Assembly: GCF_044324875.1 (NCBI RefSeq)
Contig: NZ_CP172185.1
Reading direction: 5' to 3' (one strand)
Origin: Escherichia coli
GTDB lineage: Bacteria; Pseudomonadota; Gammaproteobacteria; Enterobacterales; Enterobacteriaceae
Length of the DNA: 64,000 nucleotides
Part shown: piece after piece, positions 869 through 47,167 of the stretch
Position numbering within the stretch: the first letter of the stretch is position 1
How the letters are laid out: every line of letters starts with the position of its first letter
Made by a program: the position numbers and the translations under genes
Notes under the pieces: generated by a model
Databases searched by the model: none
Seen by the model: only the letters and a program-made list of their open reading frames with translations
What the model was told of the DNA's origin: nothing

Positions 869-958
869 GGAGAGATGCCGGAGCGGCTGAACGGACCGGT
901 CTCGAAAACCGGAGTGGGGGCAACTCCACCGGGGGTTCAAATCCCCCTCTCTCCGCCA
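869..958 (+). tRNA. serU: tRNA-Ser (anticodon CGA), 90 nt, long variable arm
   Basis: GGAGAGATGCCGGAGCGGCTGAACGGACCGGTCTCGAAAACCGGAGTGGGGGCAACTCCACCGGGGGTTCAAATCCCCCTCTCTCCGCCA. Anticodon stem CCGGT/ACCGG with loop CTCGAAA gives anticodon CGA. The variable arm differs from the attR copy by two compensatory changes. Confidence 0.9.
898..958 (+). repeat. attL core: 61 bp 3' portion of tRNA-Ser, directly repeated at 47168..47228 with 2 mismatches
   Basis: GGTCTCGAAAACCGGAGT[G/A]GGGGCAACTC[C/T]ACCGGGGGTTCAAATCCCCCTCTCTCCGCCA occurs at both ends of the phage-gene block. Integrase gene lies immediately inside. Confidence 0.75.
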
Positions 959-1003: not shown

Positions 1004-1040
1004 CTTGGAATTACTTGGAATATTTTCTTGGAATATTTTC
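1004..1040 (+). promoter_or_regulatory. Three tandem direct repeats CTTGGAAT(A/T)TT next to attL; putative integrase arm-type binding sites
   Basis: CTTGGAATTA, CTTGGAATATTTTC, CTTGGAATATTTTC in tandem, overlapping the int stop codon. An inverted copy (TTATTCCAAG) lies near attR at about 47113..47124. Confidence 0.4.
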
Positions 1041-2036
1041 AGGTAACGGGACATCAAGTGTTGGTGAAACTTTAACCTTCCGGTCATAGATTAGCACTTG
1101 CCCTTCGGTTTTGTGACCAGAGAAAAGTTGCTTATCCCGGCTGCTTCCTTCATAGTCTGAAATTCCTTTCGCCTTCAGATCATGAAAGGTGAAGTCGGTT
1201 AAAATACCTGAAACTTTGCCTGCGCGATTTCTTGCTTCTACCCACATTTCGTTAAAGCCTTTGTACATATATCGGTTGCCGTATTGATTGCTGATCACAT
1301 AGGCGGATTTTGGTAACTGTTTTGCTTTTTCGACCGCTGCCTGTAATCGTGGACTCCATGCTTTTATCTGTTTTTTCCCTGTTTTCCCTTGCTGGATAAA
1401 GATCCCGTCGTTTCCAATCTGCTCCCATTTCAGCGATAACACATCGGAAACCCTCGCTGCACACAGATAGGCAATTTCCATTGCGATAAAAACAGGAAGG
1501 GGTGCCACGCTTAATACTGCCTGGTATTCTTTGTCGGTTACATATCGTTCGCGGTTTTTGGCCTTGAATTTACTTACTCCTGCACATGGGTTAGCCTTCA
1601 CGTACCCTCGCTCATACCCCCAACTGTAAACACGGGACATACTGCTTTTTTCATGGTTGGCTTGCGTTTTACTCTGTTCCCCTCTTTTGTCCATGTATCG
1701 ACGGATGTGTTCTGGTTTTATGGAATCCGCTGGTACCTTACCGAATACGGCAAGCAACTTTTTTTGATGTTGCAGATAATCTTTTTGTGTTCTTGGACTA
1801 AGGTCACTGTAACAGGCGCTGGCGAGGAATTTTTCCCACAAGCGACCGAATGTCATTGCACGATCGCGATTATTTACAGTTTCCTCATACTTTTTCCATA
1901 AAGCAGCTAAACCATCCTTGATGGCGGTTAGTGTTACAGATTCTCTGGATGTTGGTTTCCATACATAACTATATTTATTTGGGTATACATTTGGAGGTAA
2001 TTTTTCGTGTTCAGGATTTTTCCTTCGTCTTCCCAT
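1011..2036 (-). CDS. int: Tyrosine integrase, lambda Int family
   Basis: 341 aa ORF. N-terminus MGRRRKNPEHEKLPPNVY resembles lambda Int MGRRRSHERRDLPPNLY. Adjacent to the tRNA attachment site. Confidence 0.9.
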   Translation of the reverse strand: MGRRRKNPEHEKLPPNVYPNKYSYVWKPTSRESVTLTAIKDGLAALWKKYEETVNNRDRAMTFGRLWEKFLASACYSDLSPRTQKDYLQHQKKLLAVFGKVPADSIKPEHIRRYMDKRGEQSKTQANHEKSSMSRVYSWGYERGYVKANPCAGVSKFKAKNRERYVTDKEYQAVLSVAPLPVFIAMEIAYLCAARVSDVLSLKWEQIGNDGIFIQQGKTGKKQIKAWSPRLQAAVEKAKQLPKSAYVISNQYGNRYMYKGFNEMWVEARNRAGKVSGILTDFTFHDLKAKGISDYEGSSRDKQLFSGHKTEGQVLIYDRKVKVSPTLDVPLPENIPRKYSK

Positions 2037-32682: not shown

Positions 32683-33426
32683 ATGACAGAGACAGAATCA
32701 GCGATTCTGGCGCACGCCCGGCGATGTGCGCCAGCGGAGTCGTGCGGCTTCGTGGTGAGAACGCCGGAGGGGGAAAGATATTTTCCCTGCGTGAATATCT
32801 CCGGTGAGCCGGAGGATTATTTCCGGATGGCTCCGGAGGACTGGCTGCGGGCAGAAATGCAGGGTGAGATTGTGGCGCTGGTCCACAGCCACCCCGGTGG
32901 TCTGCCCTGGCTGAGTGAGGCCGACCGGCGGCTGCAGGTGCAGAGTGATTTGCCGTGGTGGCTGGTTTGCCGGGGGACGATTCATAAGTTCCGCTGTGTG
33001 CCGCATCTCACCGGGCGGCGTTTTGAGCACGGGGTGACGGACTGTTACACGCTGTTCCGCGATGCCTATCATCTTGCAGGTATCGATTTGCCGGATTTTT
33101 ACCGACATGATGACTGGTGGAAATCAGGTCAGAATCTCTATCTTGACAATATGGAGGCGACTGGTTTTTACCGTGTCGCACTGACAGAGGCGCAGCCCGG
33201 CGACGTGCTGCTGTGCTGTTTTGGTTCATCGGTGCCGAATCATGCCGCCATTTACTGCGGCGACGGCGGGCTGCTGCACCATATTCCTGAACAACTGAGC
33301 AAACGAGAGAGGTATACCGACAAATGGCAGCGACGCACACACTCCCTCTGGCGTCACCGGGCATGGCACGCATCTGCCTTTACGGGGATTTGCAACGATT
33401 TGGCCGCCGCATCGACCTTCGTGTGA
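32683..33426 (+). CDS. K: Tail assembly protein K (NlpC/P60 plus MPN-like)
   Basis: Internal ATG at 32683 of track ORF 32641..33426; lambda gpK-like sequence (HSHPGG...). Confidence 0.8.
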   Translation: MTETESAILAHARRCAPAESCGFVVRTPEGERYFPCVNISGEPEDYFRMAPEDWLRAEMQGEIVALVHSHPGGLPWLSEADRRLQVQSDLPWWLVCRGTIHKFRCVPHLTGRRFEHGVTDCYTLFRDAYHLAGIDLPDFYRHDDWWKSGQNLYLDNMEATGFYRVALTEAQPGDVLLCCFGSSVPNHAAIYCGDGGLLHHIPEQLSKRERYTDKWQRRTHSLWRHRAWHASAFTGICNDLAAASTFV

Positions 33427-33971
33427 AAACGGGAGCCGAAGCCATCCGGGCGCTGGCCACGCAGCTCCCTGCGTTTCGTCAGAAACTGAGCGACGGCTGG
33501 TATCAGGTGCGTATTGCCGGGCGTGATACAGGCGAAAACGAATTATCAGCCCGTCTTAATGAACCGCTGGCAAATGGTGCCGTGATCCACATCGTGCCGC
33601 GTCTGGCGGGAGCCAAACGTGGTGGTGTGTTTCAGGCAGTGCTGGGCGCGGCGCTGATTGCGGTGGCATGGTGGAACCCTGCAGGCTGGCTGGGGGCTGC
33701 GGCTTTATCGGGCATGTATGCGGCAGGGGCCAGTATGGTGCTCGGTGGTGTGGCGCAGATGCTGGCACCGAAAGCCAGAATGCCCGGAGTATCAGCCACG
33801 GATAACGGCAAACAGAACACCTATTTCTCCTCACTGGATAACATGGTTGCCCAGGGGAATGCTCTGCCCGTTCTGTACGGTGAAATGCGCGTGGGGTCAC
33901 GGGTAATTTCGCAGGAGATCAGCACAGCGGATGAGGGGGATGGCGTCCGGGTTGTGGTGATTGGTCGCTGA
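33324..33971 (+). CDS. I: Tail assembly protein I
   Basis: 215 aa starting MAATHTLPLASPGMARICLYGDLQRFGRR; lambda gpI-like. Confidence 0.8.
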   Translation: MAATHTLPLASPGMARICLYGDLQRFGRRIDLRVKTGAEAIRALATQLPAFRQKLSDGWYQVRIAGRDTGENELSARLNEPLANGAVIHIVPRLAGAKRGGVFQAVLGAALIAVAWWNPAGWLGAAALSGMYAAGASMVLGGVAQMLAPKARMPGVSATDNGKQNTYFSSLDNMVAQGNALPVLYGEMRVGSRVISQEISTADEGDGVRVVVIGR

Positions 33972-34031
33972 TGAAAAACGTTTTATGTGAAACCGCCTCC
34001 GGGCGGTTTTGTCGTTTATGGAGCGTGAGGA

Positions 34032-35474
34032 ATGGGTAAAGGCAGCAGTAAGGGGCATACCCCGCGCGAAGCGAAGGACAACCTGAAGTCCACGCAGTTG
34101 CTGAGTGTGATCGATGTCATCAGCGAAGGGCCGATACAAGGACCGGTGGATGGATTAAAAAGCGTGCTGCTGAACGGTACGCCGGTGCTGGACAGTGAGG
34201 GGAATACCAATATATCCGGCGTCACGGTGGTATTCCGGGCCGGTGAGCAGGAGCAGACGCCGCCGGAGGGATTTGAATCCTCCGGCTCCGAGACGGTGCT
34301 GGGTACGGAAGTGAAGTACGACACGCCGATTACCCGGACCATCACGTCGGCAAACATCGACCGTCTGCGCCTGACCTTCGGTGTGCAGGCACTGGTGGAA
34401 ACCACCTCAAAGGGGGACCGGAATCCGTCGGAAGTCCGCCTGCTGGTTCAGATACAGCGTAACGGTCGCTGGTTAACGGAAAAAGACATCACCATTAAGG
34501 GCAAAACCACCTCGCAGTATCTGGCCTCGGTGGTGGTGGGTAACCTGCCGCCGCGCCCGTTCAGTATCCGGATGCGCAGGATGACGCCGGACAGCACCAC
34601 AGACCAGCTGCAGAACAAAACGCTCTGGTCGTCATACACCGAAATCATCGATGTGAAACAGTGCTACCCGAACACGGCACTGGTCGGTGTGCAGGTGGAT
34701 TCGGAGCAGTTCGGCAGCCAGCAGGTGAGCCGTAATTATCATCTTCGCGGGCGCATTCTGCAGGTGCCGTCGAACTATAACCCGCAGACGCGGCAATACA
34801 GCGGTATCTGGGACGGAACGTTTAAACCGGCATACAGCAACAACCCGGCCTGGTGTCTGTGGGATATGCTGACCCATCCGCGCTACGGCATGGGGAAACG
34901 TGTTGGCGCAGCGGATGTGGATAAATGGGCGCTGTATGTCATCGGCCAGTACTGCGACCAGTCAGTGCCGGACGGCTCTGGTGGCACGGAGCCGCGCATC
35001 ACCTGTAATGCCTGGCTGACCACACAGCGTAAGGCGTGGGATGTGCTCAGTGATTTCTGCTCGGCGATGCGCTGTATGCCGGTATGGAACGGGCAGACGC
35101 TGACGTTCGTGCAGGACCGACCGTCGGATAAGGTGTGGACCTATAACCGCAGTAATGTGGTGATGCCGGATGATGGCGCGCCGTTCCGCTACAGCTTCAG
35201 CGCCCTGAAGGACCGCCATAATGCCGTTGAGGTGAACTGGAGTGACCCGGATAACGGCCAGGAGACGGCGACAGAGCTTGTGGAGGACACGCAGGCCATT
35301 GCCCGTTACGGTCGTAACGTCACGAAGATGGATGCCTTTGGCTGTACCAGCCGGGGGCAGGCACACCGCGCCGGGCTGTGGCTGATTAAAACAGAACTGC
35401 TGGAGACGCAGACCGTGGATTTCAGCGTGGGTGCTGAAGGGCTTCGCCATGTACCGGTGCAAAATGGCATCTGA
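34032..35474 (+). pseudogene. J: Host specificity protein J, N-terminal fragment (interrupted by IS21-family insertion at about 35458)
   Basis: MGKGSSKGHTPREAKDNLKSTQLLSVIDVISEGPIQGPVDGLKSVLLNGTPVLD matches lambda J. The reading frame runs into the IS and stops at 35474. Confidence 0.85.
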
Positions 35475-35659
35475 ATCGATCGCAGTTTGGCATTCGAATC
35501 GATCATGATTTGGCATCCATCTCCGATCACAGTTTGGCATCACAATCGATCACGATTTGGCATGCTTCCGATCATTGATTGGCATCCTGCCAGTCACTCC
35601 GGGAATTAACTCTTTTCACCACAGTCTCCATTGCCGTGTTTAAACCAGTGGAGACGTCA

Positions 35660-37225
35660 ATGTCCAGAAAGAGAAAATCCAGGAGCACTATGGAAACCTG
35701 TTTTAAGATCCTTCAGCTCAAGTTCGACAAGAAGCTGACTAACCGTTGTATCGGACTGACGTTACACATCAGCGCCTCAACCGTTTTTGAGGTTCTTGCC
35801 CGCTTCAAAGCCTCTTCTCTGTCATGGCCATTACCTGCTGATATATCCCATGACACGCTGGAGAAACTCATTTTTCCGCCCAAAGACACCTTTGCATCAG
35901 AGCTTGTAATGCCTGACATGTTGTACTTCGATACGGAAATGAGAAAACCAGGTGTGACGCGGCAACTGTTGTGGATGGAATACAAGGCACAGGCGGGTAA
36001 CAAAGCGATGGGATACTCGCACTTCTGCCGTTGCTACCGGGAGTGGAAAAAAACGCGACGTCTCTCCATGCGCCAGGAGCATCGTGCCGGCGAAAAGCTT
36101 TTTATCGACTTCTGTGGTCCTACGGTTCCTGTTATTAATCCGGACACCGGTGAGATACGCCGCGTGGCAATCTTCGTGGCCGTAATGGGGGCGTCCAACT
36201 ATACCTACGTTGAAGCGTGCGAAGGTCAGGACATGATGTCATGGTTAAATGCCCACAGCCGTTGCCTGACCTTCCTGGGCGGCGTACCGAAGCTGCTCAT
36301 CCCCGATAACCTCAGAAGCGCAGTGAAAAAGGCCGATCGATATGAGCCTGTCATCAACGACAGTTATCAGGCACTGGCTGAGCACTATGGCACGGTTATC
36401 ATCCCGGCCCGACCACGCAAACCTAAAGATAAACCAAAAGCAGAAAACGGCGTCCTCATCGTTGAACGATGGCTTCTTGCCCGCATCCGTAATGAAACCT
36501 TCCACACGCTCAGGGCGCTGAATGCGCGCCTTAGGGAGTTACTGACAGACATGAATAACCGGCCAATGAAGGGGTACGGCAATCAAACCCGTGCAGAACG
36601 CTTCCGCATACTGGATGCGCCAGCACTCTCTCCGCTGCCTCTGGCACCTTATGAATACACGGAATACAAAGCTGTGAAGGTTGGCCCTGACTACCACGTT
36701 GAATATGCCCGTCACTGGTACTCCGTTCCACACGAACTGGTCGGTCAGCGTCTGTCACTGAAGGCGGGGCAGTCGGTGGTACAGCTCTGGCACAAGGGGC
36801 AGTGTGTGGCGCAACATCCGCGCAGCACACATGAATATAAACACACAACCAATCCGCTTCACATGCCAGAGCGCCACCGGCAGCACGGGACATGGACACC
36901 GGAACGCCTGATCGAGCAGGGAAAACGTACGGGCCCGTCCACAGGCCGGGTGGTTGAATCCATGCTGAAGGCAAAACCCCATCCGGAACTGGCTTATCGT
37001 GCAGTTCTGGGGCTGCTGGCACTTCAGAAAAAATACGGCCCGGAACGGCTGGAAAAGGCCTGTTACGTTGCCCTGCACTATAACGCCCCTGACAGACGCT
37101 TTATCGACAATCTGCTGCGTCACCATCGGGAGAACCTGGAGCTTCCATTATCCCGCCAGGGCGAACAACATCCGGCATATGCTTCAGAGCATGAAAACCT
37201 GCGTGGTCCGGGCTACTACCACTGA
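35660..37225 (+). CDS. istA: IS21-family transposase IstA
   Basis: Internal ATG at 35660 with GGAG RBS; about 521 aa with N-terminal HTH and DDE-type core. Confidence 0.85.
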   Translation: MSRKRKSRSTMETCFKILQLKFDKKLTNRCIGLTLHISASTVFEVLARFKASSLSWPLPADISHDTLEKLIFPPKDTFASELVMPDMLYFDTEMRKPGVTRQLLWMEYKAQAGNKAMGYSHFCRCYREWKKTRRLSMRQEHRAGEKLFIDFCGPTVPVINPDTGEIRRVAIFVAVMGASNYTYVEACEGQDMMSWLNAHSRCLTFLGGVPKLLIPDNLRSAVKKADRYEPVINDSYQALAEHYGTVIIPARPRKPKDKPKAENGVLIVERWLLARIRNETFHTLRALNARLRELLTDMNNRPMKGYGNQTRAERFRILDAPALSPLPLAPYEYTEYKAVKVGPDYHVEYARHWYSVPHELVGQRLSLKAGQSVVQLWHKGQCVAQHPRSTHEYKHTTNPLHMPERHRQHGTWTPERLIEQGKRTGPSTGRVVESMLKAKPHPELAYRAVLGLLALQKKYGPERLEKACYVALHYNAPDRRFIDNLLRHHRENLELPLSRQGEQHPAYASEHENLRGPGYYH

Positions 37226-37241
37226 CAGAAGGAACAACAGT

Positions 37242-37997
37242 ATGAGTGATAACCTGTTAAACAAACTGACCCAACTGAAACTCCCGGCGATGGCCGGGAG
37301 CCTGATACGGCAGCGGGAAACGCCTCAGACCTACGACGAACTGTCGTTCGAGGAAAGGCTGACGCTGCTGGTTGATGACGAGCTTCTGAGCAGGGAAAAC
37401 AGCCGTGTGGCACGGTTGAGAAAAAATGCCGGCCTGAAATACCAGGCAACACCGGAAGGGCTGCGCTATCCGGCCTCAAGAGGTCTGCGGGCTGAACAGA
37501 TGAGAGAACTGCTGAACGGCCACTACATAACCCACAGGAAAAACCTGCTGATAACCGGTCCGACAGGATGTGGCAAGAGCTGGATAGCCAATGCGCTGGG
37601 CGAACAGGCATGTCGACAGAAACACAGCGTCCGGTACTGTAGAACCGGGCGATTACTGGAACAACTGGCTCAGGGACGTGTTGATGGCAGCTGGCTGAAA
37701 TATCTGAAACAGTTGCAAAAAATACAGGTTCTAATCCTGGACGATCTGGGGCTGGAACAGTTAAGTAACGCCCAGTGTAATGACCTTCTGGAGCTCATAG
37801 AGGATCGTTACGGACAAAGCAGCACGATAGTGGTAAGCCAGTTCCCGGTAGATAAATGGCATGGTCTGATGGAGAACCCAACAACAGCAGATGCCATCCT
37901 GGACAGACTGGTACATAACTCACACCGAGTGGTCCTTCAGGGAGAGTCACTGAGGAAAAATCCCCCGGTAGTGGAAAGCAGCGAAAAAACGCGTTAA
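37242..37997 (+). CDS. istB: IS21-family ATP-binding helper IstB
   Basis: MSDNLLNKLTQLKLPAMAGSL...LITGPTGCGKSWIANALG (Walker A)...LILDDLG (Walker B). Confidence 0.85.
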   Translation: MSDNLLNKLTQLKLPAMAGSLIRQRETPQTYDELSFEERLTLLVDDELLSRENSRVARLRKNAGLKYQATPEGLRYPASRGLRAEQMRELLNGHYITHRKNLLITGPTGCGKSWIANALGEQACRQKHSVRYCRTGRLLEQLAQGRVDGSWLKYLKQLQKIQVLILDDLGLEQLSNAQCNDLLELIEDRYGQSSTIVVSQFPVDKWHGLMENPTTADAILDRLVHNSHRVVLQGESLRKNPPVVESSEKTR

Positions 37998-38096
37998 AAA
38001 GCGGTAGAAAAAGTTAAGTTCCCGGTTGATCGAATGGATGCGAATCGCTGATCGGACTTCGATGCCAATCCGTGATCGAATAGAGCGGAATACGCA

Positions 38097-40219
38097 TACC
38101 GGGCGATGTCATTGAAATCTGTGATGATGACTATGCCGGTATCAGCACCGGTGGTCGTGTGCTGGCGGTGAACAGCCAGACCCGGACGCTGACGCTCGAC
38201 CGTGAAATCACGCTGCCATCCTCCGGTACCACGCTGATAAGCCTGGTTGACGGAAGTGGCAATCCGGTCAGCGTGGAGGTTCAGTCCGTCACCGACGGCG
38301 TGAAGGTAAAAGTGAGCCGGGTTCCTGACGGCGTTGCCGAGTACAGCGTGTGGGGGCTGAAGCTGCCGACGCTGCGCCAGCGCCTGTTCCGCTGCGTGAG
38401 TATCCGTGAGAACGACGACGGCACGTATGCCATCACTGCCGTGCAGCATGTACCGGAAAAAGAGGGCATCGTGGATAACGGGGCACACTTTGACGGTGAC
38501 CAGAGCGGCACGGTGAATGGTGTCACGCCGCCAGCAGTGCAGCACCTGACTGTCGAAGTCACCGCAGACAGCGGGGAGTATCAGGTACTGGCCCGCTGGG
38601 ACACGCCGAAGGTGGTGAAAGGCGTGAGTTTCATGCTTCGCCTGACCGTGGCAGCGGATGACGGCAGTGAGCGGCTGGTCAGCACGGCCCGGACGACGGA
38701 AACCACATACCGCTTCAGGCAGCTGGCGCCGGGGAACTACAGGCTGACAGTCCGGGCAGTAAATGCCCGGGGGCAGCAGGGAGACCCGGCGTCGGTATCG
38801 TTCCGGATTGCCGCACCGGCAGCGCCGTCGCGGATTGAGCTGACGCCGGGCTATTTTCAGATAACCGCCACGCCGCATCTTGCCGTTTATGATCCGACGG
38901 TGCAGTTTGAGTTCTGGTTCTCGGAAAAGCGGATTACCGATATCAGGCAGGTTGAAACCACAGCCCGTTATCTTGGTACCGGAAGTCAGTGGCTTGTCTC
39001 CGGCCAGAATATTAAACCTGGCCATGATTATTACTTTTATATCCGCAGTGTTAACACTGTCGGTAAATCGGCATTCGTGGAGGCAGTCGGTCGGGCGAGT
39101 AATGATCCTGCCGGTTACCTTAATTTTTTCAGGGGGGCGATAAATAAAACGCATCTGGGACGGGAGATCAATGAACGCATTGATGCCTCTGCACGGCGCA
39201 CTGAAGTTGAGCAACTGGAGAATGCGATTAACCGCGAAATGACGCAGCTGGAGAATGCGATTAACCGCGAAATGACGCAGCTGGAGAAAGATGTGAGGCA
39301 GCGTGCGGAGCGTGATATCGCAGAGGTGACGAAAAAAATCACGGCGTCTGAAAACAGCATAACGGAACTGGTGGCGAAAAAGAGCGGTGAACAGTCGCTG
39401 GCCATTGCGAAAGTCGACAGGAAAGTTGACAGCGTGAGCAGTGAAATCCGGCAGACAGTAAGCAGGAGCACGGAGGAGAACAGCCGACAGATAGCGCAGG
39501 TCAGGCAGTATGTTGATGATAAAAGTGCGCAAATAAGTACTGTTGTGGCGAAAAAGAGCGGTGAACAGTCAATGGCCATTGCGGAAGTTGACAGAAAAGT
39601 TGACAGGATGGGCAGCGAAATCCGGCAGACAGTAAGCAGGAGCACGGAGGAGAACAGCCGACAGATAGCGCAGATCAGACAGTATGTTGATGATAAGGGA
39701 AGTCAGATCAAACAGAGCACGGATAAAAAACTGGGATCCTGGAATGCCAGCATTGAGCAGATACAGAAAGTTCAGGAGGACACGCGCCGGAACCTGAACA
39801 GCATGTGGGCTGTGAAGCTGCAGCAGACACGGGATGGACGTCTCTATATTGCAGGTATTGGTGCCGGAATCGAAAATACGTCTGACGGAATTCAGAGTCA
39901 GATCCTGATGCAGGCAGATCGTATTGCGATGATTAACCCGGAAAATGGCAATACAACACCTTTGTTTGTGGCTCAGGGTGATCAGCTGTTCATGAATGAT
40001 GTTTTCATGAAAAAACTGACCGTGGATTTTGCCAGAGTGACGGGAGATATCCGGTCAGATAATTTTCATTCCGGTAGTCCGGGGTGGCGTTTATCAAGAA
40101 ACGGCAGCCTTGAAATTAACTCAGGAAGGCCCGGCGCAGGCCGCCTGTTTTTCAATGGCGAGCGAATCGACGTATATGACGATAACAATGTGTTAAGAGT
40201 ACGACTGGGGAGACTGTAA
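38097..40219 (+). pseudogene. J: Host specificity protein J, C-terminal fragment (distal tip diverges from lambda and carries tandem duplications)
   Basis: Continues the lambda-J-like sequence [43 protein letters not shown]. Track ORF 38159..40219. Confidence 0.85.
39214..39718 (+). repeat. Tandem duplications inside the J distal region: 2 x 33 bp and 2 x about 174 bp
   Basis: CTGGAGAATGCGATTAACCGCGAAATGACGCAG twice ([11 protein letters not shown] x2). A larger unit starting GTGGCGAAAAAGAGCGGTGAACAGTC repeats at about 39371 and 39545 with about 90 percent identity. Confidence 0.7.
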
Positions 40220-40479
40220 TGTTCGGAGTCCGGGTATGGCGCAAAGGGCGCCTTGTGACACATGAAATAAACCCAACAGGGGTGCTGGATGTGATCACTG
40301 AAGGGACGGGGCAGCGTTCTTATACTCCTTTGCAGGGCTGGCGTCTGGAAGTCTGTTCACCGGCCATTCTGATTAACGGTCAGGGAAGTCATACCAGTGC
40401 CAGTGTATCCGGCTGGACAGTGCACTATGCCAACACAAGCTGGCTAAGACCCGTGCTGGTCATGATAAGGGGGATCTGA
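40219..40479 (+). CDS. Hypothetical protein (86 aa), translationally coupled to J
   Basis: Start overlaps the J stop (TAATG); no known motif. Confidence 0.5.
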   Translation: MFGVRVWRKGRLVTHEINPTGVLDVITEGTGQRSYTPLQGWRLEVCSPAILINGQGSHTSASVSGWTVHYANTSWLRPVLVMIRGI

Positions 40480-41141
40480 TGTTTGCACTTAAATTAACTG
40501 ATGAGCGGGGGAGAGAATGGATATCACCTGTTGCGCCGCCACTGAACCTTGTGCGCCGTTTTCATTTCACACTGAGTGCGCGTGATGCGGTGATGCAGTT
40601 TATCGACACCGGGGTGCCGACGAATTATCGTTGCGTGATTTTTATTAAACAGATAAGCGGTAATCAGTCCTTCCATGGTGAAATGGTTCAGCTTAACGGT
40701 ACCTGGCAGTATGACATTTTCAGCGCTGGTACAGGGCAGGAGCCGGGCATGGAACAGGACAGCACATATGTTGTTTATGTTTTTGCCAACATGGTGAATG
40801 TATGGCCGCAATGGGGAATACAGTTGTGCGACAGTCATGGCAGGGTGGTCTGGAACACGGAAATGCTGCCACTGGAAGTAAAAATGACGCGAATATGGGA
40901 AAAGGATGTACCGATCAGTGTGGGACATGATGTGGCCGTAATGCCGGGGTGTACCCAGTGGACGACAGTTCAGGAAGGGGAGAGTTATTACTGGTATACC
41001 GCCAGTTTTAATGCCAGAAACTCACAGTTATGGCGTCAGTCAACTTTTGCTGAAGATAACGTAGCGGCGCCCAATGATAATTCAGGTGTTGTTAATAACC
41101 TCTGTTATTACATAAATGCAGAAATTTATGATGCGTACTGA
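40479..41141 (+). CDS. Hypothetical protein (220 aa) downstream of J
   Basis: Start overlaps the previous stop (TGATG); Trp/Tyr-rich; no family recognised. Confidence 0.5.
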   Translation: MFALKLTDERGREWISPVAPPLNLVRRFHFTLSARDAVMQFIDTGVPTNYRCVIFIKQISGNQSFHGEMVQLNGTWQYDIFSAGTGQEPGMEQDSTYVVYVFANMVNVWPQWGIQLCDSHGRVVWNTEMLPLEVKMTRIWEKDVPISVGHDVAVMPGCTQWTTVQEGESYYWYTASFNARNSQLWRQSTFAEDNVAAPNDNSGVVNNLCYYINAEIYDAY

Positions 41142-41162
41142 TAGTTATGTTGAGGGCATGTA

Positions 41163-41408
41163 ATGAAAATAATCGTCTGCACTTTTTTGCTGTTTCTTGT
41201 ATCAGGTTGCGCGGGGTACCGTTCCGTTACGGAGAGAGTCCGGTGCACCGGTGTGCTGAGTCCCGGGGTTTTACAGCGAGCTTATACGGTAGATCTTACA
41301 GGGAAAATAGAAACGAAAAGCGGCACTGTGTATAAAGTATCAGCTCCGAGATTTTATGGTCAGTGGGTGAGTGAAGATATGTTTACGAAAGTTTCGTGCG
41401 TGAAGTAA
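41163..41408 (+). CDS. Small predicted lipoprotein (81 aa); possible Cor-like superinfection-exclusion protein
   Basis: MKIIVCTFLLFLVSGC lipobox; located between J and the side tail fibre, where cor-type genes sit in some lambdoid phages. Function is inferred from position only. Confidence 0.5.
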   Translation: MKIIVCTFLLFLVSGCAGYRSVTERVRCTGVLSPGVLQRAYTVDLTGKIETKSGTVYKVSAPRFYGQWVSEDMFTKVSCVK

Positions 41409-41483
41409 TCATAAAAACACCCGATTGTAAATGAATGACGACGCCCGCAATTTTGCGGGATTATTTTTATTTGTGGAGCGAGT

Positions 41484-42812
41484 ATGGCGGCTGTAAAAAT
41501 TTCAGGCGTGCTCAGGGACGGAACCGGAAAACCGGTACCGGGATGCATTATTGAGCTGAAAGCGAAGAGAACCAGCGAGACAGTCATCGCCACGACAGTG
41601 GCTTATGGCATGCCGGAAGAGACGGGGAGTTACAGTATGGATGTGGAGCCAGGAATATACAGGGTGACACTCAATACAGAAGGTTACCGTCCTTCGTATG
41701 TGGGAGATATCGTGGTCAGGGAGGATTCTTCACCGGGAACACTGAATAAATTTCTGATGGAGATGGAAGATGCTCCTTATTATCCGAAGGCGTTGTCAGA
41801 GCTGGAGGCTGTGGTGCAGTCCATACTGCACAGAGCAGAGTCCGCGGCATCTGAGGCGGAGGAAGCCCGGAAGCGAGCAGCATCTGCCCGGGGACCACGA
41901 GGAGAGAAAGGGGATACCGGCGCTCGTGGTGAAAGAGGCATTACCGGGCCACAGGGGCCAAAAGGTGAAACAGGAGCACGTGGCCCGGCAGGACCACAGG
42001 GACCAAAAGGTGAAACAGGTGAACGCGGTCCGGCAGGTCCACAGGGACCAAAGGGCGATACAGGTGAACGCGGCCCGGCAGGTCCACAGGGACCAAAAGG
42101 TGAAACAGGTGCACGTGGTCCGGAAGGTCCACAGGGAGCAAAAGGTGAAACAGGTGAACGCGGCCCGGCAGGTCCACAGGGAGCAAAGGGCGAAACAGGT
42201 GCACGTGGTCCGGAAGGCCCTCAGGGTCTGAAGGGAGAAAAGGGTGAGCGAGGAGAAAAAGGCCCTAAGGGGGATAAAGGAGATCCGGGAGGTCCACAGG
42301 GACCAAAAGGTGAAACAGGTGAACGTGGCCCGGCAGGTCCACAGGGACCAAAAGGTGAAACAGGTGAACGTGGCCCGGCAGGTCCACAGGGACCAAAGGG
42401 CGATACAGGTGAACGCGGTCCGGCAGGTCCACAGGGGCCAAGAGGGTATACAGGTGAACGCGGGCCGACAGGTCTACAGGGGCCAAGAGGGTATACAGGT
42501 GAACGCGGGCCGGCAGGTCCACAGGGGCCAAGAGGAGAAGCGGGGCGGCCAGCGAGCGTCGGAAGTGTTTATTCCGTGGGGTCTTATGTTCTGGGGATCA
42601 TAGAACGAAATCATGAGATAACAAATACCCGTCAAATACCCGGGTATCGTATCAGACAGGCCGTTATTGTGTCGTCGTCATCGGATAAACTTACAGATAT
42701 CCGCTTTTTATTTGGCAATCCTATGCTTGGTACATGGATGTTATGCACAACTAACATGGCGGTGAATAATATCAGTGGGACGATTTGGGGCCTGTTTCAG
42801 AGAATACTGTGA
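41484..42812 (+). CDS. stf: Side tail fibre protein with collagen-like Gly-X-Y repeats
   Basis: N-terminal tail-fibre domain ([63 protein letters not shown]) followed by about 70 G-X-Y triplets. Confidence 0.85.
41884..42546 (+). repeat. Collagen-like triplet repeat array (tandem about 45 bp units) within the tail fibre gene
   Basis: Repeated GGTCCACAGGGACCAAAAGGTGAAACAGGTGAACGCGGCCCGGCA-type units encoding [15 protein letters not shown]; explains the many antisense ORFs in the track here. Confidence 0.8.
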
Positions 42813-42827
42813 CAGGGGGAGAAATGA

Positions 42828-42950
42828 ATGAAGGTCGATAAAATCACGTCACCAGTGTGGGCTGACAGGGGTCATACGACCATAAACTGTATAGTGAAGT
42901 TTTCAGACGCGGAAACAGAATGTGTATTTACAGCAAGTGCGGATGATCCG
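42828..42950 (+). pseudogene. tfa: Tail fibre assembly protein, N-terminal 41 codons (interrupted by IS66-family insertion)
   Basis: ATG at 42828 with GGGGGAG RBS; MKVDKITSPVWADRGHTTINCIVKFSDAETECVFTASADDP then a stop inside the IS end. Confidence 0.6.
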
Positions 42951-43032
42951 TAACCGGCTCATTTAAACCGTCTGGTCTGTTTCCTCCGGCTCTACAAAAA
43001 TAATGTCCATCATTTTTAATGGACACTATCGT

Positions 43033-43680
43033 ATGAAACACCGGACCTGGATCACTGAAGCTTTACGTCTTCACTTTGAAGAACATTTACCCCGGGTTGT
43101 GGCCGGGCGTCGCCTGGGTGTACCAAAATCAACAGTTTGTAGTATGTTCGTGCGCTTTCGGAGAGCTGGCCTTTCGTGGCCTTTGCCCGCAGGCATGTCG
43201 GAGCAGGAACTTGATGCCTGCCTTTACGGACAATTTTCCACGGTACCAGTCGTACGTCCTGAAAGCACCGTTATATCCGAAGCCCCCGTGGTAAAAAAAC
43301 GTCCCCGGCGGCCCAACTTCCCTTATGAGTTTAAAATCGCCTTAGTGGAGCAGTCACTGCAGCCCGGAGCCTGTGTGGCGCAGATCGCCCGGGAAAACGG
43401 AATCAACGATAACCTGCTCTTCAACTGGCGCCATCAATACCGGAAAGGTGGCCTGCTGCCTTCCGGAAAAAATATGCCGGCACTGCTTCCCGTGACGTTA
43501 ACGCCGGAGCCGGATAATAAAATCCCGGCCCCCGCACAGGAACCAGAGCAGATAAATACACCGTCCGACAGTCTGTGTTGTGAGCTGGTTCTGCCGGCCG
43601 GAACTCTCAGGCTTAAAGGTAAACTGACGCCGGCGTTATTACAGACACTTATCCGCGAAATAAAAGGGAGCAGCCACTGA
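43033..43680 (+). CDS. tnpA: IS66-family accessory protein TnpA (orf1)
   Basis: Internal Met of track ORF 43003..43680; HTH-like N-terminus. Confidence 0.7.
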   Translation: MKHRTWITEALRLHFEEHLPRVVAGRRLGVPKSTVCSMFVRFRRAGLSWPLPAGMSEQELDACLYGQFSTVPVVRPESTVISEAPVVKKRPRRPNFPYEFKIALVEQSLQPGACVAQIARENGINDNLLFNWRHQYRKGGLLPSGKNMPALLPVTLTPEPDNKIPAPAQEPEQINTPSDSLCCELVLPAGTLRLKGKLTPALLQTLIREIKGSSH

Positions 43681-44027
43681 TGATATCTCTCCCTGCAGGT
43701 TCGCGTATCTGGCTGGTTGCAGGTATCACCGATATGCGAAATGGCTTTAACGGCCTGGCATCAAAAGTTCAGAACGTCCTGAAGGATGACCCGTTCTCCG
43801 GACACCTGTTCATCTTCCGCGGACGCCGGGGTGACCAGATAAAAGTGTTGTGGGCTGACAGTGACGGACTGTGCCTCTTCACCAAACGCCTGGAGCGGGG
43901 CCGCTTCGTCTGGCCAGTCACCCGTGACGGCAAGGTGCACCTTACTCCGGCTCAGTTATCCATGCTTCTTGAAGGTATCAACTGGAAGCACCCGAAACGA
44001 ACGGAACGCGCTGGAATCCGCATATAA
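43680..44027 (+). CDS. tnpB: IS66-family TnpB (orf2)
   Basis: 115 aa; MISLPAGSRIWLVAGITDMRNGFNGLASKVQNVLKDDPFSGHLFIFRGRRGDQIKVLWAD is the typical IS66 Orf2. Confidence 0.85.
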   Translation: MISLPAGSRIWLVAGITDMRNGFNGLASKVQNVLKDDPFSGHLFIFRGRRGDQIKVLWADSDGLCLFTKRLERGRFVWPVTRDGKVHLTPAQLSMLLEGINWKHPKRTERAGIRI

Positions 44028-44046
44028 CCCGTTGTAAAGTGAGGAT

Positions 44047-45618
44047 ATGGACACCTCACTTGCTCATGAGAACGCCCGCCTGCGGGCACTGTTGCAGACG
44101 CAACAGGACACCATCCGCCAGATGGCTGAATACAACCGCCTGCTCTCACAGCGGGTGGCGGCTTATGCTTCCGAAATCAACCGGCTGAAGGCGCTGGTTG
44201 CGAAACTGCAACGTATGCAGTTCGGTAAAAGCTCAGAAAAACTTCGTGCAAAAACCGAACGGCAGATACAGGAAGCACAGGAGCGAATCAGCGCACTTCA
44301 GGAAGAAATGGCGGAAACGCTGGGTGAGCAATATGACCCGGTACTGCCATCCGCCCTGCGCCAGTCTTCAGCCCGTAAACCGTTACCGGCCTCACTTCCC
44401 CGTGAAACCCGGGTTATCCGGCCGGAAGAGGAATGCTGTCCTGCCTGTGGTGGTGAACTCAGTTCTCTGGGATGTGATGTGTCAGAGCAACTGGAGCTTA
44501 TCAGCAGCGCCTTTAAGGTTATCGAAACACAACGTCCGAAACAGGCCTGTTGCCGGTGCGACCATATCGTGCAGGCACCAGTACCTTCAAAACCCATTGC
44601 ACGCAGTTATGCCGGAGCGGGGCTTCTGGCCCATGTTGTCACCGGGAAATATGCAGACCATCTGCCGTTATACCGCCAGTCAGAAATATACCGTCGTCAG
44701 GGAGTGGAGCTGAGCCGTGCCACACTGGGGCGCTGGACAGGTGCTGTTGCTGAACTGCTGGAGCCGCTGTATGACGTCCTGCGCCAGTATGTGCTGATGC
44801 CCGGTAAAGTCCATGCTGATGATATCCCCGTCCCGGTCCAGGAGCCGGGCAGCGGTAAAACCCGGACAGCCCGGCTGTGGGTCTACGTCCGTGATGACCG
44901 TAACGCCGGTTCACAGATGCCCCCGGCGGTCTGGTTCGCGTACAGTCCGGACCGGAAAGGTATCCATCCACAAAATCACCTGGCCGGTTACAGCGGTGTG
45001 CTTCAGGCCGATGCTTACGGTGGTTACCGGGCGTTATACGAATCCGGCAGAATAACGGAAGCCGCGTGTATGGCTCATGCCCGGAGAAAAATCCACGATG
45101 TGCATGCAAGAGCGCCCACCTACATCACCACGGAAGCCCTGCAGCGTATCGGTGAACTGTATGCCATCGAGGCAGAGGTCCGGGGCTGTTCAGCAGAACA
45201 GCGTCTGGCGGCAAGAAAAGCCAGAGCCGCGCCACTGATGCAGTCACTGTATGACTGGATACAGCAACAGATGAAAACACTGTCGCGTCACTCAGATACG
45301 GCAAAAGCGTTCGCATACCTGCTGAAACAGTGGGATGCACTGAACGTGTACTGCAGTAATGGCTGGGTGGAAATCGACAACAACATCGCAGAGAACGCCT
45401 TACGGGGAGTGGCCGTAGGCCGGAAAAACTGGATGTTCGCGGGTTCCGACAGCGGTGGTGAACATGCGGCGGTGTTGTACTCGCTGATCGGCACATGCCG
45501 TCTGAACAATGTGGAGCCAGAAAAGTGGCTGCGTTACGTCATTGAACATATCCAGGACTGGCCGGCAAACCGGGTACGCGATCTGTTGCCCTGGAAAGTT
45601 GATCTGAGCTCTCAGTAA
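44047..45618 (+). CDS. tnpC: IS66-family transposase TnpC (orf3)
   Basis: 523 aa with N-terminal coiled coil, Cys cluster CPACGG...CCRCDH, and DDE-type core. Confidence 0.85.
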
Positions 45619-45648
45619 ATATCAATACGGTTCTGACGAGTCGCTTAC

Positions 45649-46110
45649 GATGATCCTGAGTCTTACGGTCGTGAAATATTTGAAGCCTGCATAAGAGGTG
45701 ATGCAGGGCCGGTAGGTGAGTACCGGGCAAATGATGATATGGCTGTGGAAGAAGCACGCAGGATGAAAAACGCGGAGATAAATGCCTGGCGTGATGCGAT
45801 GGAGGCGTCAGGGTATGTTTTTGAGCACAGAGGACGGAAATGGGATTATGGAAAGGAAACCATGACACGTCTTGGAATGTCGGCATCAGCGGCCAGAGGC
45901 GGTGTGTTGCCGGAAGGATTTTTCTGGACGGACGCAGAGAATAATGATGTACCGATGACGGCAGATGAACTGATATCCCTGAGTGATGCTGCTGGTAAAG
46001 CGATGTTCAGGAAAGGCCTTGAAATACATATAAGGCAAAGGGAGATGAAAAAGGCAATAGCAGAACTGAGTGACAGTGAAACCATTCTGGCGTACAGGGT
46101 TGGATGGTGA
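45649..46110 (+). pseudogene. tfa: Tail fibre assembly protein, C-terminal fragment
   Basis: In frame with the N-terminal fragment once the IS and one TSD copy are removed (..ADDPESYGREIFEACIRGDAGPVGEY..); track ORF 45739..46110. Confidence 0.6.
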
Positions 46111-46127
46111 AACTGATAAAAAAACCC

Positions 46128-46160
46128 CTCTGAAAATTCTGTCAGAGGGGGGCAAGGATC
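46128..46160. terminator. 9 bp perfect hairpin CCCCTCTGA/TCAGAGGGG with flanking A-run (T-run on minus strand)
   Basis: Located just after tfa; geometry favours minus-strand termination. Confidence 0.4.
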
Positions 46161-46336
46161 TATATTTATTATGCGGTAATGCTTTCACTCCGGTAATTAA
46201 TTTCAGTGATTAACTGCTTTCGATCAATAAAGGAATTGCAAAAAGGTGATCTTGTTCACGACATTGTGGATGATAATATGCCTGATGTCTGAATCCGGAA
46301 ACAGTGATCTGGCGGGTTTCATGTGAAGTTGACGGA

Positions 46337-46368
46337 TAAAAAATCCGCACGACCAGACAGACGTGCGG
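46337..46368 (-). terminator. Rho-independent terminator downstream of the ykgJ-like gene
   Basis: CCGCACG-loop-CGTGCGG hairpin, followed on the minus strand by a T-run. Confidence 0.5.
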
Positions 46369-46475
46369 TTTACGAAATTCGTAACAAGAGGCTTTTCTAG
46401 GGATCACGTGGTGCGTGCCACGTGAAATTTTTGTAGCGCAAAATGTGTAATGTGTAAATACAAGGAAGGAAAAAG

Positions 46476-46805
46476 TTAAATCGGTGGAAGTCCATACCGG
46501 GAACGTGCACGGTTACATGCTTCGTTTTCAATACCATTTTCACCAGACATGGCAAATTCCCGGCACGTTGATGAACGGTTTTCGTAGATGGTACAGCTCG
46601 CTTCTTTACCTGGTGTTCCTGCAAGGGCAATACATCTGGGGTTTTTCTGGTTTGTACCGATCATGCATCGGTGCAAAGGCGATACTTGTTCAGTAAGTCT
46701 GGCTGGAATGGTGCCGCCAGCATCGTCGGCTTCGGCCCAGTAAAAAGAGACGCGGAAAAATGCACAACAGGCACCACACGTTATGCATGGATTTGGATTG
46801 CTCAT
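46476..46805 (-). CDS. YkgJ-family (UPF0153) Cys-rich putative metal-binding protein; cargo gene at the prophage right end
   Basis: [31 protein letters not shown]...[16 protein letters not shown] closely resembles recalled E. coli YkgJ (CxxCGxCC motif). Confidence 0.75.
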
Positions 46806-47167
46806 AATTCACCACAGCTATAAATTATAAAGAAAACCGCAGCATGTCGTATGCAAGAACGTGCTGCAGCTGGCTGGTTAACTTTCGATAGTGCGAGTAT
46901 TGAATGATTTCCAGCCGTTACCGATTTTATATAACTGCAGTGGAATTATTCAACACAGGCAAAACGGAATAAGCTGAGAAAAAAGCGTACTTTCCCAATC
47001 TGGGGCAAATCACGTCTGAATGACACCTGACAACAGATGGTGGCCTCAAGAAGGCTTGGAATATTCTTCTTTAATGTTATGTAAATTATTGATTTTTCGT
47101 GTACGATTTTAAGACATTTATTCCAAGAAAAATTTTTAACTCTTTGATTTTTCGACTCTGTATCATC

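Follow-up and report, generated by a model that had tools for sequence, protein, structure and literature searches.

In-frame tandem duplications in the predicted helical shaft of J, the central tail fibre protein of an Escherichia coli lambdoid prophage

The 64,000-nucleotide stretch of Escherichia coli DNA analysed here (from contig NZ_CP172185.1; hereafter the window) holds a lambdoid prophage whose J gene, encoding the central tail fibre or tip attachment protein, contains two sets of tandem duplications in its distal part. These arrays raise the question of which part of the fibre has been duplicated and what a change in their copy number would alter. An earlier note on this DNA had described a 33-bp and an approximately 174-bp unit, each duplicated in tandem and in frame at 39214-39718, in a region where J diverges from its lambda counterpart, and had suggested that copy-number change could vary fibre length or receptor specificity. 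We consider it probable, at roughly 0.78, that the arrays are in-frame tandem duplications within a trimeric helical shaft of J and that their copy number sets the length of that shaft. Repeat-number variation in fibrous phage proteins is well known in kind and is a fairly ordinary way to change fibre length. The J alleles discussed below are already public under generic names, and a literature search found no paper describing these shaft repeats.

The two arrays and the shaft that contains them

Tandem Repeats Finder returned a 33-bp unit at 39211-39288 (2.4 copies, 97% matches) and a 174-bp unit at 39371-39696 (1.9 copies, 92% matches), both without indels, and a second repeat search of the window returned the same two arrays. 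Both periods are multiples of three and lie in the frame of J (plus-strand open reading frame 38159-40219). The in-frame tandem match amounts to 33 of 33 nucleotides for the shorter unit and 141 of 152 for the core of the longer one, while the best of 1000 codon shuffles of the C-terminal fragment of J reached 26 of 33 and 73 of 152. The duplications reported in the earlier note are thus borne out, and their coordinates were right to within 3 bases. The second 174-bp unit differs from the first at 11 of the first 152 nucleotides (5 synonymous and 6 non-synonymous codons) and over its last 22 nucleotides, and the two units have an identical core of 57 nucleotides in common. Apart from these, the window has no tandem arrays except the terminal repeats of an insertion sequence and the collagen repeats in its side tail fibre gene.

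Repeats are in general fragile in assemblies, and nothing else speaks for an assembly artefact. The identical arrangement occurs in two prophages of strain TUM1886 and in isolate F1022, and variants with one 33-bp unit or three 174-bp units occur in other complete genomes. Because the same arrays recur in independent complete genomes, we regard the chance that they are artefacts of this assembly as negligible.

The Pfam families FNIII-A_GpJ, Phage-tail_3, Ig_J and Ig_J_second identify the protein as a lambda-type TipJ with N-terminal hub domains, and the repeats sit after Ig_J_second (the second FNIII/Ig domain) and before Phage_Tail_Tip (PF09327). The sequences on either side match lambda gpJ 803-838 and 842-941, between which lambda has about 4 residues and the window J about 185, so that the arrays were correctly placed in the lambda-divergent part of J. 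We delimited the shaft as the 228 residues from GYLNFF to RRNL, the corresponding lambda interval, between its GYL and NAMW motifs, being about 47 residues. Downstream of it, the beta part of the protein matches the lambda central-fibre structures 8xcj, 8xci, 8xck and 8jvm in Foldseek, and the short distal end aligns with gp33 of phage T1 (9l9p_S) up to residue 1168 of 1172. The lambda-type receptor-binding domain (PF12421, Ig_GpJ_C) is absent from the window J in the Pfam search, and the protein ends 30 residues past the PF09327 match.

In lambda the same site, after FNIII-2 and before the beta-prism and with homologous flanks, is occupied by the alpha-helical shaft (AHS) of gpJ (approximately residues 809-861; 8XCK, 8XCI, 8JVM), a bundle of three helices situated below FNIII-2, where it clamps the FNIII trimer (PMC11101478). 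The AHS has about 47 residues, compared with 228 here, and lacks tandem repeats; lambda J also continues into the C-terminal receptor-binding domain that the window J does not have.

Proline is absent from the entire shaft of the window J, and its hydrophobic residues recur with a period of 3.63-3.65 residues in a 3-4-4 spacing, a value that none of 500 shuffles reached. At a period of 3.636 the phase stays within 133-178 degrees over shaft residues 33-187, that is, for about 150 residues and across all repeat junctions. AlphaFold2, run on the monomer with a 37-sequence alignment, modelled J residues 826-996 as one helix of 171 residues, with beta-structure afterwards. The mean predicted local distance difference test (pLDDT) value of 10-residue blocks was 83-97 over residues 832-971 and dropped towards 50 by the helix's C-terminal end, and confidence was low only at residues 987-1040. 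The stretch therefore has the amphipathic, continuous helical character of an AHS-like shaft and, because of its position and these helical properties, we interpret the repeats as having expanded the central fibre's helical shaft. By analogy with lambda gpJ and the central fibre of F-type pyocins, this shaft would be trimeric. Compared by itself with the sequences of the PDB, the shaft gave no significant match (best 9cuy, E=0.61).

The shaft also has an internal order. When the recent duplications are removed, autocorrelation shows self-similarity at 29 residues (z=6.3) and more weakly at 11 and 58 residues, with successive 29-residue rows starting DIAEV, AIAKV, QIAQV, AIAEV, QIAQI and SIEQI. 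At 3.625 residues per turn, 29 residues make 8 helical turns; 11 residues make 3 turns and 58 residues 16. Both duplications, of 11 and 58 residues, keep the helical phase, and both lengths are local optima for periodicity among hypothetical duplication lengths.

Length alleles and their probable origin

The earlier note had proposed comparing repeat number among homologous J genes. The shaft is present in 22 of 5426 complete E. coli genomes, and among these copy number does vary, from one to two recent hendecads and from two to three 58-aa units. Two copies of the 33-bp unit were found in 4 of the 22 genomes and one copy in the other 18. Designating alleles by their numbers of recent hendecads and of 58-aa units, we found allele (1,2), with a J of 1169 aa, in the complete genomes of LH50-c and B771; allele (2,2), with 1180 aa, in the window, the two TUM1886 prophages and F1022; and allele (2,3), with 1238 aa, in the complete genomes of AR_0085 and ECCNB12-2. 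Apart from these repeat units, the J proteins of the three lengths do not differ. At every diagnostic position the third 174-bp unit of AR_0085 and ECCNB12-2 (loci L003 and L004) agrees with unit 1, and its sequence is the same as that of the window's unit 1.

Further variants came from draft data in a large protein collection. In P0005, a (1,3) allele, the middle unit is a 2/1 hybrid, and P0001 is a (1,2) allele with a separate 29-aa duplication. Alleles of type (1,1) were found in draft contigs only (P0007 and P0017-P0019), assembly GCA_025524575.1 being one of the carriers; the (1,1) allele at locus L013, on a short-read contig of 2.3 kb, is exactly the reciprocal hybrid, 1/2, in which the switch falls within the 57-nt identical core. 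The (1,1) allele may be either the reciprocal product of unequal crossing-over or a collapse in assembly. In one-copy alleles the 33-bp unit is bounded by CA[A/G]CTGGAGAA repeats of 9-10 bp lying 33 bp apart. In-frame, head-to-tail units thus vary in number between near-identical alleles, with hybrid units and flanking microhomology among them.

The shaft family is rare, among phages too. Megablast of the repeat region against a phage collection found nothing, and sensitive blastn and tblastn searches of its 50,697 records found a recognisable shaft relative in two, PhiR40_1 and PhiR49_2. PhiR40_1 is an isolated phage with a 148-residue shaft made of one hendecad and one 58-aa unit. Aligned with the window shaft reduced in the same way, its shaft is 60% identical, with exactly one 11-residue gap; this gap remains even without the recent hendecad copy and corresponds to the older, diverged hendecad. 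The single-unit state also occurs in P0026, P0027, P0034 and P0122, and we take it to be the ancestral one.

Shaft length accordingly ranges from 47 aa in lambda through 75 aa in the NCTC8623 type and 148 aa in PhiR40_1 to 159 (drafts only), 217, 228 (window), 246, 275 and 286 aa in the present lineage. In distant J-like proteins the same spacer measures from 40 to more than 1260 aa and contains repeats of its own, of 32, 84, 190 and 399 aa. Given this wide range, the J shaft is a generally length-variable module, of which the lineage of the window is a recent, polymorphic example. Among the distant relatives, P0154, P0181, P0182, P0200, P0237 and P0269 are central fibre proteins 2000-4200 residues long that have hundreds to thousands of Ala/Ser/Thr-rich tandem-repeat residues between FNIII and PF09327, and some of these giant proteins also hold inserted globular modules.

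These observations can be accommodated by a stepwise expansion. The shaft of this J lineage is built from a 29-residue repeat of about 8 turns with hendecad-like 3-4-4 hydrophobic spacing. One hendecad would have become two in an old event, the copies of which have diverged, and three in a recent event that left identical copies; likewise, one 58-aa double module would have become two (old, with about 7% core divergence) and, in some strains, three (recent and identical). The most likely source of the 33-bp step is replication slippage between the 9-10-bp direct repeats; for the 174-bp steps, unequal homologous crossing-over of one unit with another is the likeliest. Only in-frame, register-preserving products would survive in a coiled-coil shaft, and since steps of 11 and 58 residues come near to complete helical turns, the hydrophobic seam would stay in register. 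At about 0.15 nm per helical residue, each event would lengthen or shorten the shaft by about 1.6 nm (11 aa) or 8.7 nm (58 aa), and the whole shaft of the window J would measure about 34 nm, compared with about 7 nm in lambda. Lengthening would shift the distal receptor-binding end away from the tail tip.

Of the two effects suggested in the earlier note, fibre length is the plausible variable because the repeat region is a continuous helix. What favours the second, that copy-number changes alter receptor specificity, is the place of the repeats in the distal third of J, which diverges from lambda and is generally tied to host range. However, this place is the helical shaft, with the beta-prism and any receptor-binding domain downstream of it, and the units differ from one another in only a few conservative residues. 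In addition, the (1,2) shaft allele is joined to either the short end terminating in GRL or a lambda-like PF12421 receptor-binding domain, the latter being carried by the sister alleles L011 and P0010. Since one shaft is found with two unrelated distal modules, an effect on specificity is unsupported, and we consider it very improbable. In L011 (NZ_AP027520.1) the fusion of the expanded shaft to the lambda-like receptor-binding C-terminus forms a J-like coding sequence of 1226 aa that starts right after a head-decoration gene, from which we infer that this prophage carries a large deletion.

Alternatively, the duplications may be neutral, having arisen by slippage in a prophage gene that is decaying and being without significance for structure or function. 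The rarity of the shaft family is in keeping with such an origin, as is the state of the window prophage, in which J is split by an IS21-family element and the tail-fibre assembly gene by an IS66-family element. Yet all variants examined in intact alleles keep both the reading frame and the helical phase, the intact J genes of 1169-1238 aa stand in otherwise complete tail modules, and a related shaft is found in the isolated phage PhiR40_1. With 5 synonymous and 6 non-synonymous codon differences between the 58-aa units, dN/dS is well below 1 by rough estimate. Neutral decay therefore seems to us quite unlikely.

Several points nevertheless weigh against a length-setting helical shaft. The predicted template modelling score (pTM) of the AlphaFold2 monomer is 0.31, and pLDDT is below 50 both in the final 18 residues of unit 2 and in the lambda-homologous segment next to them; this shaft is known from its sequence and that monomer model. 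The phase-preservation test is weak because about one duplication length in 3 or 4 would pass it. The one-unit alleles come only from short-read contigs and could be assembly collapses. Finally, since J is a pseudogene in this genome, the repeats have no phenotype here, and the relevance of shaft length for infection is a proposal.

Related central fibres and a possible fold switch

In the F7 pyocin, the central fibre has a 163-residue coiled coil between FNIII-2 and a distal part of 139 residues, and on cell contact this coiled coil becomes a beta-prism, a switch that powers ejection of the tape measure; a similar switch was predicted for 21 of 24 siphophage central fibres, including those of HK639 and mEp390 (PMC12874032). 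By this precedent, the shaft of the window J could be a metastable coiled coil that turns into beta-prism on receptor binding, with the repeats tuning stored energy or stroke instead of, or besides, the resting length. If so, the extent of the switch would depend on repeat number as well. We consider this possible but unlikely.

The architecture agrees with it. A long coiled coil precedes the beta-prism seed, and the window J has the pyocin-like order of FNIII-2, long shaft and 140 distal residues, followed by two small genes, as PyoF11 and PyoF12 follow the pyocin fibre gene, and by a side fibre gene. The C-terminal part matches the F2-pyocin fibre (25vf_A, E=6.5e-8) and T1 gp33 (9l9p_S, E=5.8e-19). 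In lambda, the AHS flips on LamB binding and its residues 841-861 become beta-strands in the open state (PMC11101478); the homologous segment of the window J is where AlphaFold2 loses confidence.

Other features argue against a fold switch. The shafts of F-type pyocins (F7 central fibre residues 921-1083; PAO1 PA0641 907-1084) likewise follow FNIII as long trimeric coiled coils ahead of about 140 distal residues, but they are reported to be heptad-based and to carry the motif SxSxxMxxLxS, and the PAO1 shaft, according to a second preprint, is a metastable coiled coil of canonical heptads. The window shaft instead has a period of about 3.63 and 29-residue repeats. Scanned in both orientations with residue classes that approximate the published ones, it is not enriched in the motif (strict matches, 2 versus 2.3 expected; loose four-of-five matches, 29 versus 25 expected). 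The shaft by itself finds no sequence match in the PDB, AlphaFold2 gave helix only for the monomer, and He et al. state that lambda does not show an extensive switch. A combined reading, in which the shaft would be a spring-like metastable coiled coil of 29-residue, 8-turn modules and the natural alleles would form a series tuning both the reach of the tip and the released energy, appears rather unlikely; if it held, energy would be released as the shaft collapsed into beta-prism to open the tail tip.

Two further systems bear comparison with the length-variable shaft. The best full-length match to shaft and distal end is T1 gp33 (9L9P chain S, in which residues 821-1172 are unresolved; query residues 47-378 against 853-1168), the C-terminal part of which is predicted to form an alpha/beta fibre about 37 nm long, longer than that of lambda (PMC11945409). 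T1, in contrast, is a virulent phage in which no repeat polymorphism is described, and the shaft taken alone has too little sequence identity for a match. In prophage side tail fibres, the collagen-like Gly-X-Y repeats are likewise in-frame tandem units that vary in number between strains, but they form a collagen triple helix rather than an alpha-helical coiled coil and have other unit sizes.

In F-type pyocins the side fibres dock on the shaft, and we therefore considered whether the repeats might serve as extra docking sites of this kind. In Ur-lambda, however, the PF08400 N-domain, which the side tail fibre protein of the window has as well, makes a collar at the gpV/gpM junction and not on J, and this idea was rejected.

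Prophage setting and implications

Table 1. Positions of the J gene, its parts and surrounding features in the window (coordinates as letters of the 64,000-nucleotide stretch; J residues numbered in the restored 1180-aa protein)
Feature	Position	Strand	Remarks
tRNA-Ser (anticodon CGA)	869-958		Directly adjoins prophage integrase gene
Prophage integrase gene	1011-2036	-	
J (central tail fibre / tip attachment protein), N-terminal fragment	34032-35457	+	Pfam FNIII-A_GpJ, Phage-tail_3; collinear with intact TUM1886 J to 35457
IS21-family insertion sequence (ISSso4-like), 2639 bp	35458-38096	+	Pfam rve / Mu-transpos_C_2, IstB_IS21
istA (DDE transposase)	35579-37225	+	Pfam
istB (AAA+ helper)	36999-37997	+	Pfam
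J, C-terminal fragment (rest of codon 476 to stop)	38103-40219	+	Pfam Ig_J, Ig_J_second, Phage_Tail_Tip; NCBIfam lambda_TipJ in two stretches
Predicted alpha-helical shaft of J	39113-39796	+	J residues 813-1040, 228 aa; between lambda-homologous stretches
Recent 33-bp / 11-aa hendecad duplication	39212-39277	+	Two identical copies, 39212-39244 and 39245-39277; J residues 846-867
Older, diverged third hendecad	39278-39310	+	J residues 868-878; part of the 2.4 copies of Tandem Repeats Finder
174-bp / 58-aa unit, copy 1	39371-39544	+	J residues 899-956; two 29-residue sub-repeats
174-bp / 58-aa unit, copy 2	39545-39718	+	J residues 957-1014
Phage_Tail_Tip (PF09327), beta-prism "central straight fibre" part	39752-40129	+	Pfam E=1.1e-34; phmmer to lambda gpJ 842-941
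Short distal end of J (...RVRLGRL, then stop)	40130-40219	+	No PF12421 match; aligns with T1 gp33 (9l9p_S) and SSU5-like phage J
Antisense open reading frames over J C-terminal fragment, 512 and 176 aa	37994-39532, 39115-39645	-	
Small open reading frame, 86 aa, directly after J	40219-40479		Site of lom in lambda
Small open reading frame, 220 aa	40479-41141		PHROG 425 ("membrane associated protein", moron)
Side tail fibre gene stf	41484-42812		PF08400 N-domain and collagen Gly-X-Y repeats (45-bp units, 41949-42539); 1.3 kb downstream of J
IS66-family element	~42950-45648		tnpA 43003-43680, tnpB 43680-44027, tnpC 44047-45618

The prophage begins at the left end of the window with an integrase gene beside tRNA-Ser, a junction (869-2036) that is likely its attachment site, and continues with the terminase, tape measure and tail-tip genes; host genes resume from about 47.9 kb (Table 1). 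J starts after the gene for tail-assembly protein I and is not a continuous gene: an IS21-family element, the junctions of which we located by comparison with the intact gpJ of TUM1886, separates codons 1-475 and the first base of codon 476 from the remainder. The element carries istA and istB, ends in TG...CA, has 23-bp terminal multi-repeats and is flanked by a 6-bp target duplication, TACCGG, at 35452-35457 and 38097-38102. Excising the element and one TACCGG copy gives 3543 nucleotides without an internal stop, encoding a J of 1180 aa, the length of TUM1886 gpJ. The NCBIfam model lambda_TipJ scored 828 bits on the C-terminal fragment, under the cut-off of 1950 bits for the whole protein, because only a fragment was scored.

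The split, which the earlier note does not mention, makes the window J a pseudogene, broken at codon 476 upstream of the repeats, which are inherited features of a now-dead allele. Copies of the element that are 100% identical occur in other E. coli, where they are annotated as IS21 family and their IstB as ISSso4 family, and the insertion is therefore recent; the J::IS21 junction was found in none of the complete E. coli genomes of the collection. At another locus of the lineage (L009, NZ_CP158426.1) J is truncated by IS1414, and J of this lineage has repeatedly been struck by insertion sequences and recombination.

The two small open reading frames after J have no match in Pfam, NCBIfam or the PDB, and the longer is 26% identical to an unannotated region of Stx2 phages. 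Their position mirrors that of PyoF11 and PyoF12, which are thought to be receptor-binding attachments of the F-type pyocin central fibre. As this likeness consists of synteny only, we did not retain them as adhesins of that type. The antisense open reading frames over J match no Pfam family, the longer one crosses the boundary of the insertion sequence, and both are most likely spurious. No Rfam family was found in window positions 33000-47000.

Further downstream, stf encodes 442 aa in the window and 457 aa in TUM1886, one 15-aa unit fewer, and is a second repeat-number polymorphism in the fibre module; homologues are annotated at 1806-1815 nucleotides (about 601-604 aa) in other strains. 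The IS66-family element, the second insertion sequence of the module, interrupts the DUF4376 / tail-fibre-assembly gene, which lies downstream of stf, and comparison with TUM1886 indicates an 8-bp target duplication.

For annotation, J length differences of 33 or 174 bp should be read as genuine alleles, which short-read assemblies may collapse, and the window J as a pseudogene disrupted by an insertion sequence. In lambda, the part of J that lies between its FNIII domains and its beta-prism couples receptor binding to opening of the tail tip, and the same segment appears to be the energy store for membrane puncture in F-type pyocins. The prophage lineage described here provides near-isogenic natural alleles that differ by only 11, 29 or 58 residues of this shaft, some of them joined to a lambda-type receptor-binding domain. 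Such an allelic series could be used to probe the effect of shaft length on adsorption across O-antigen or capsule layers and on how DNA ejection is triggered.

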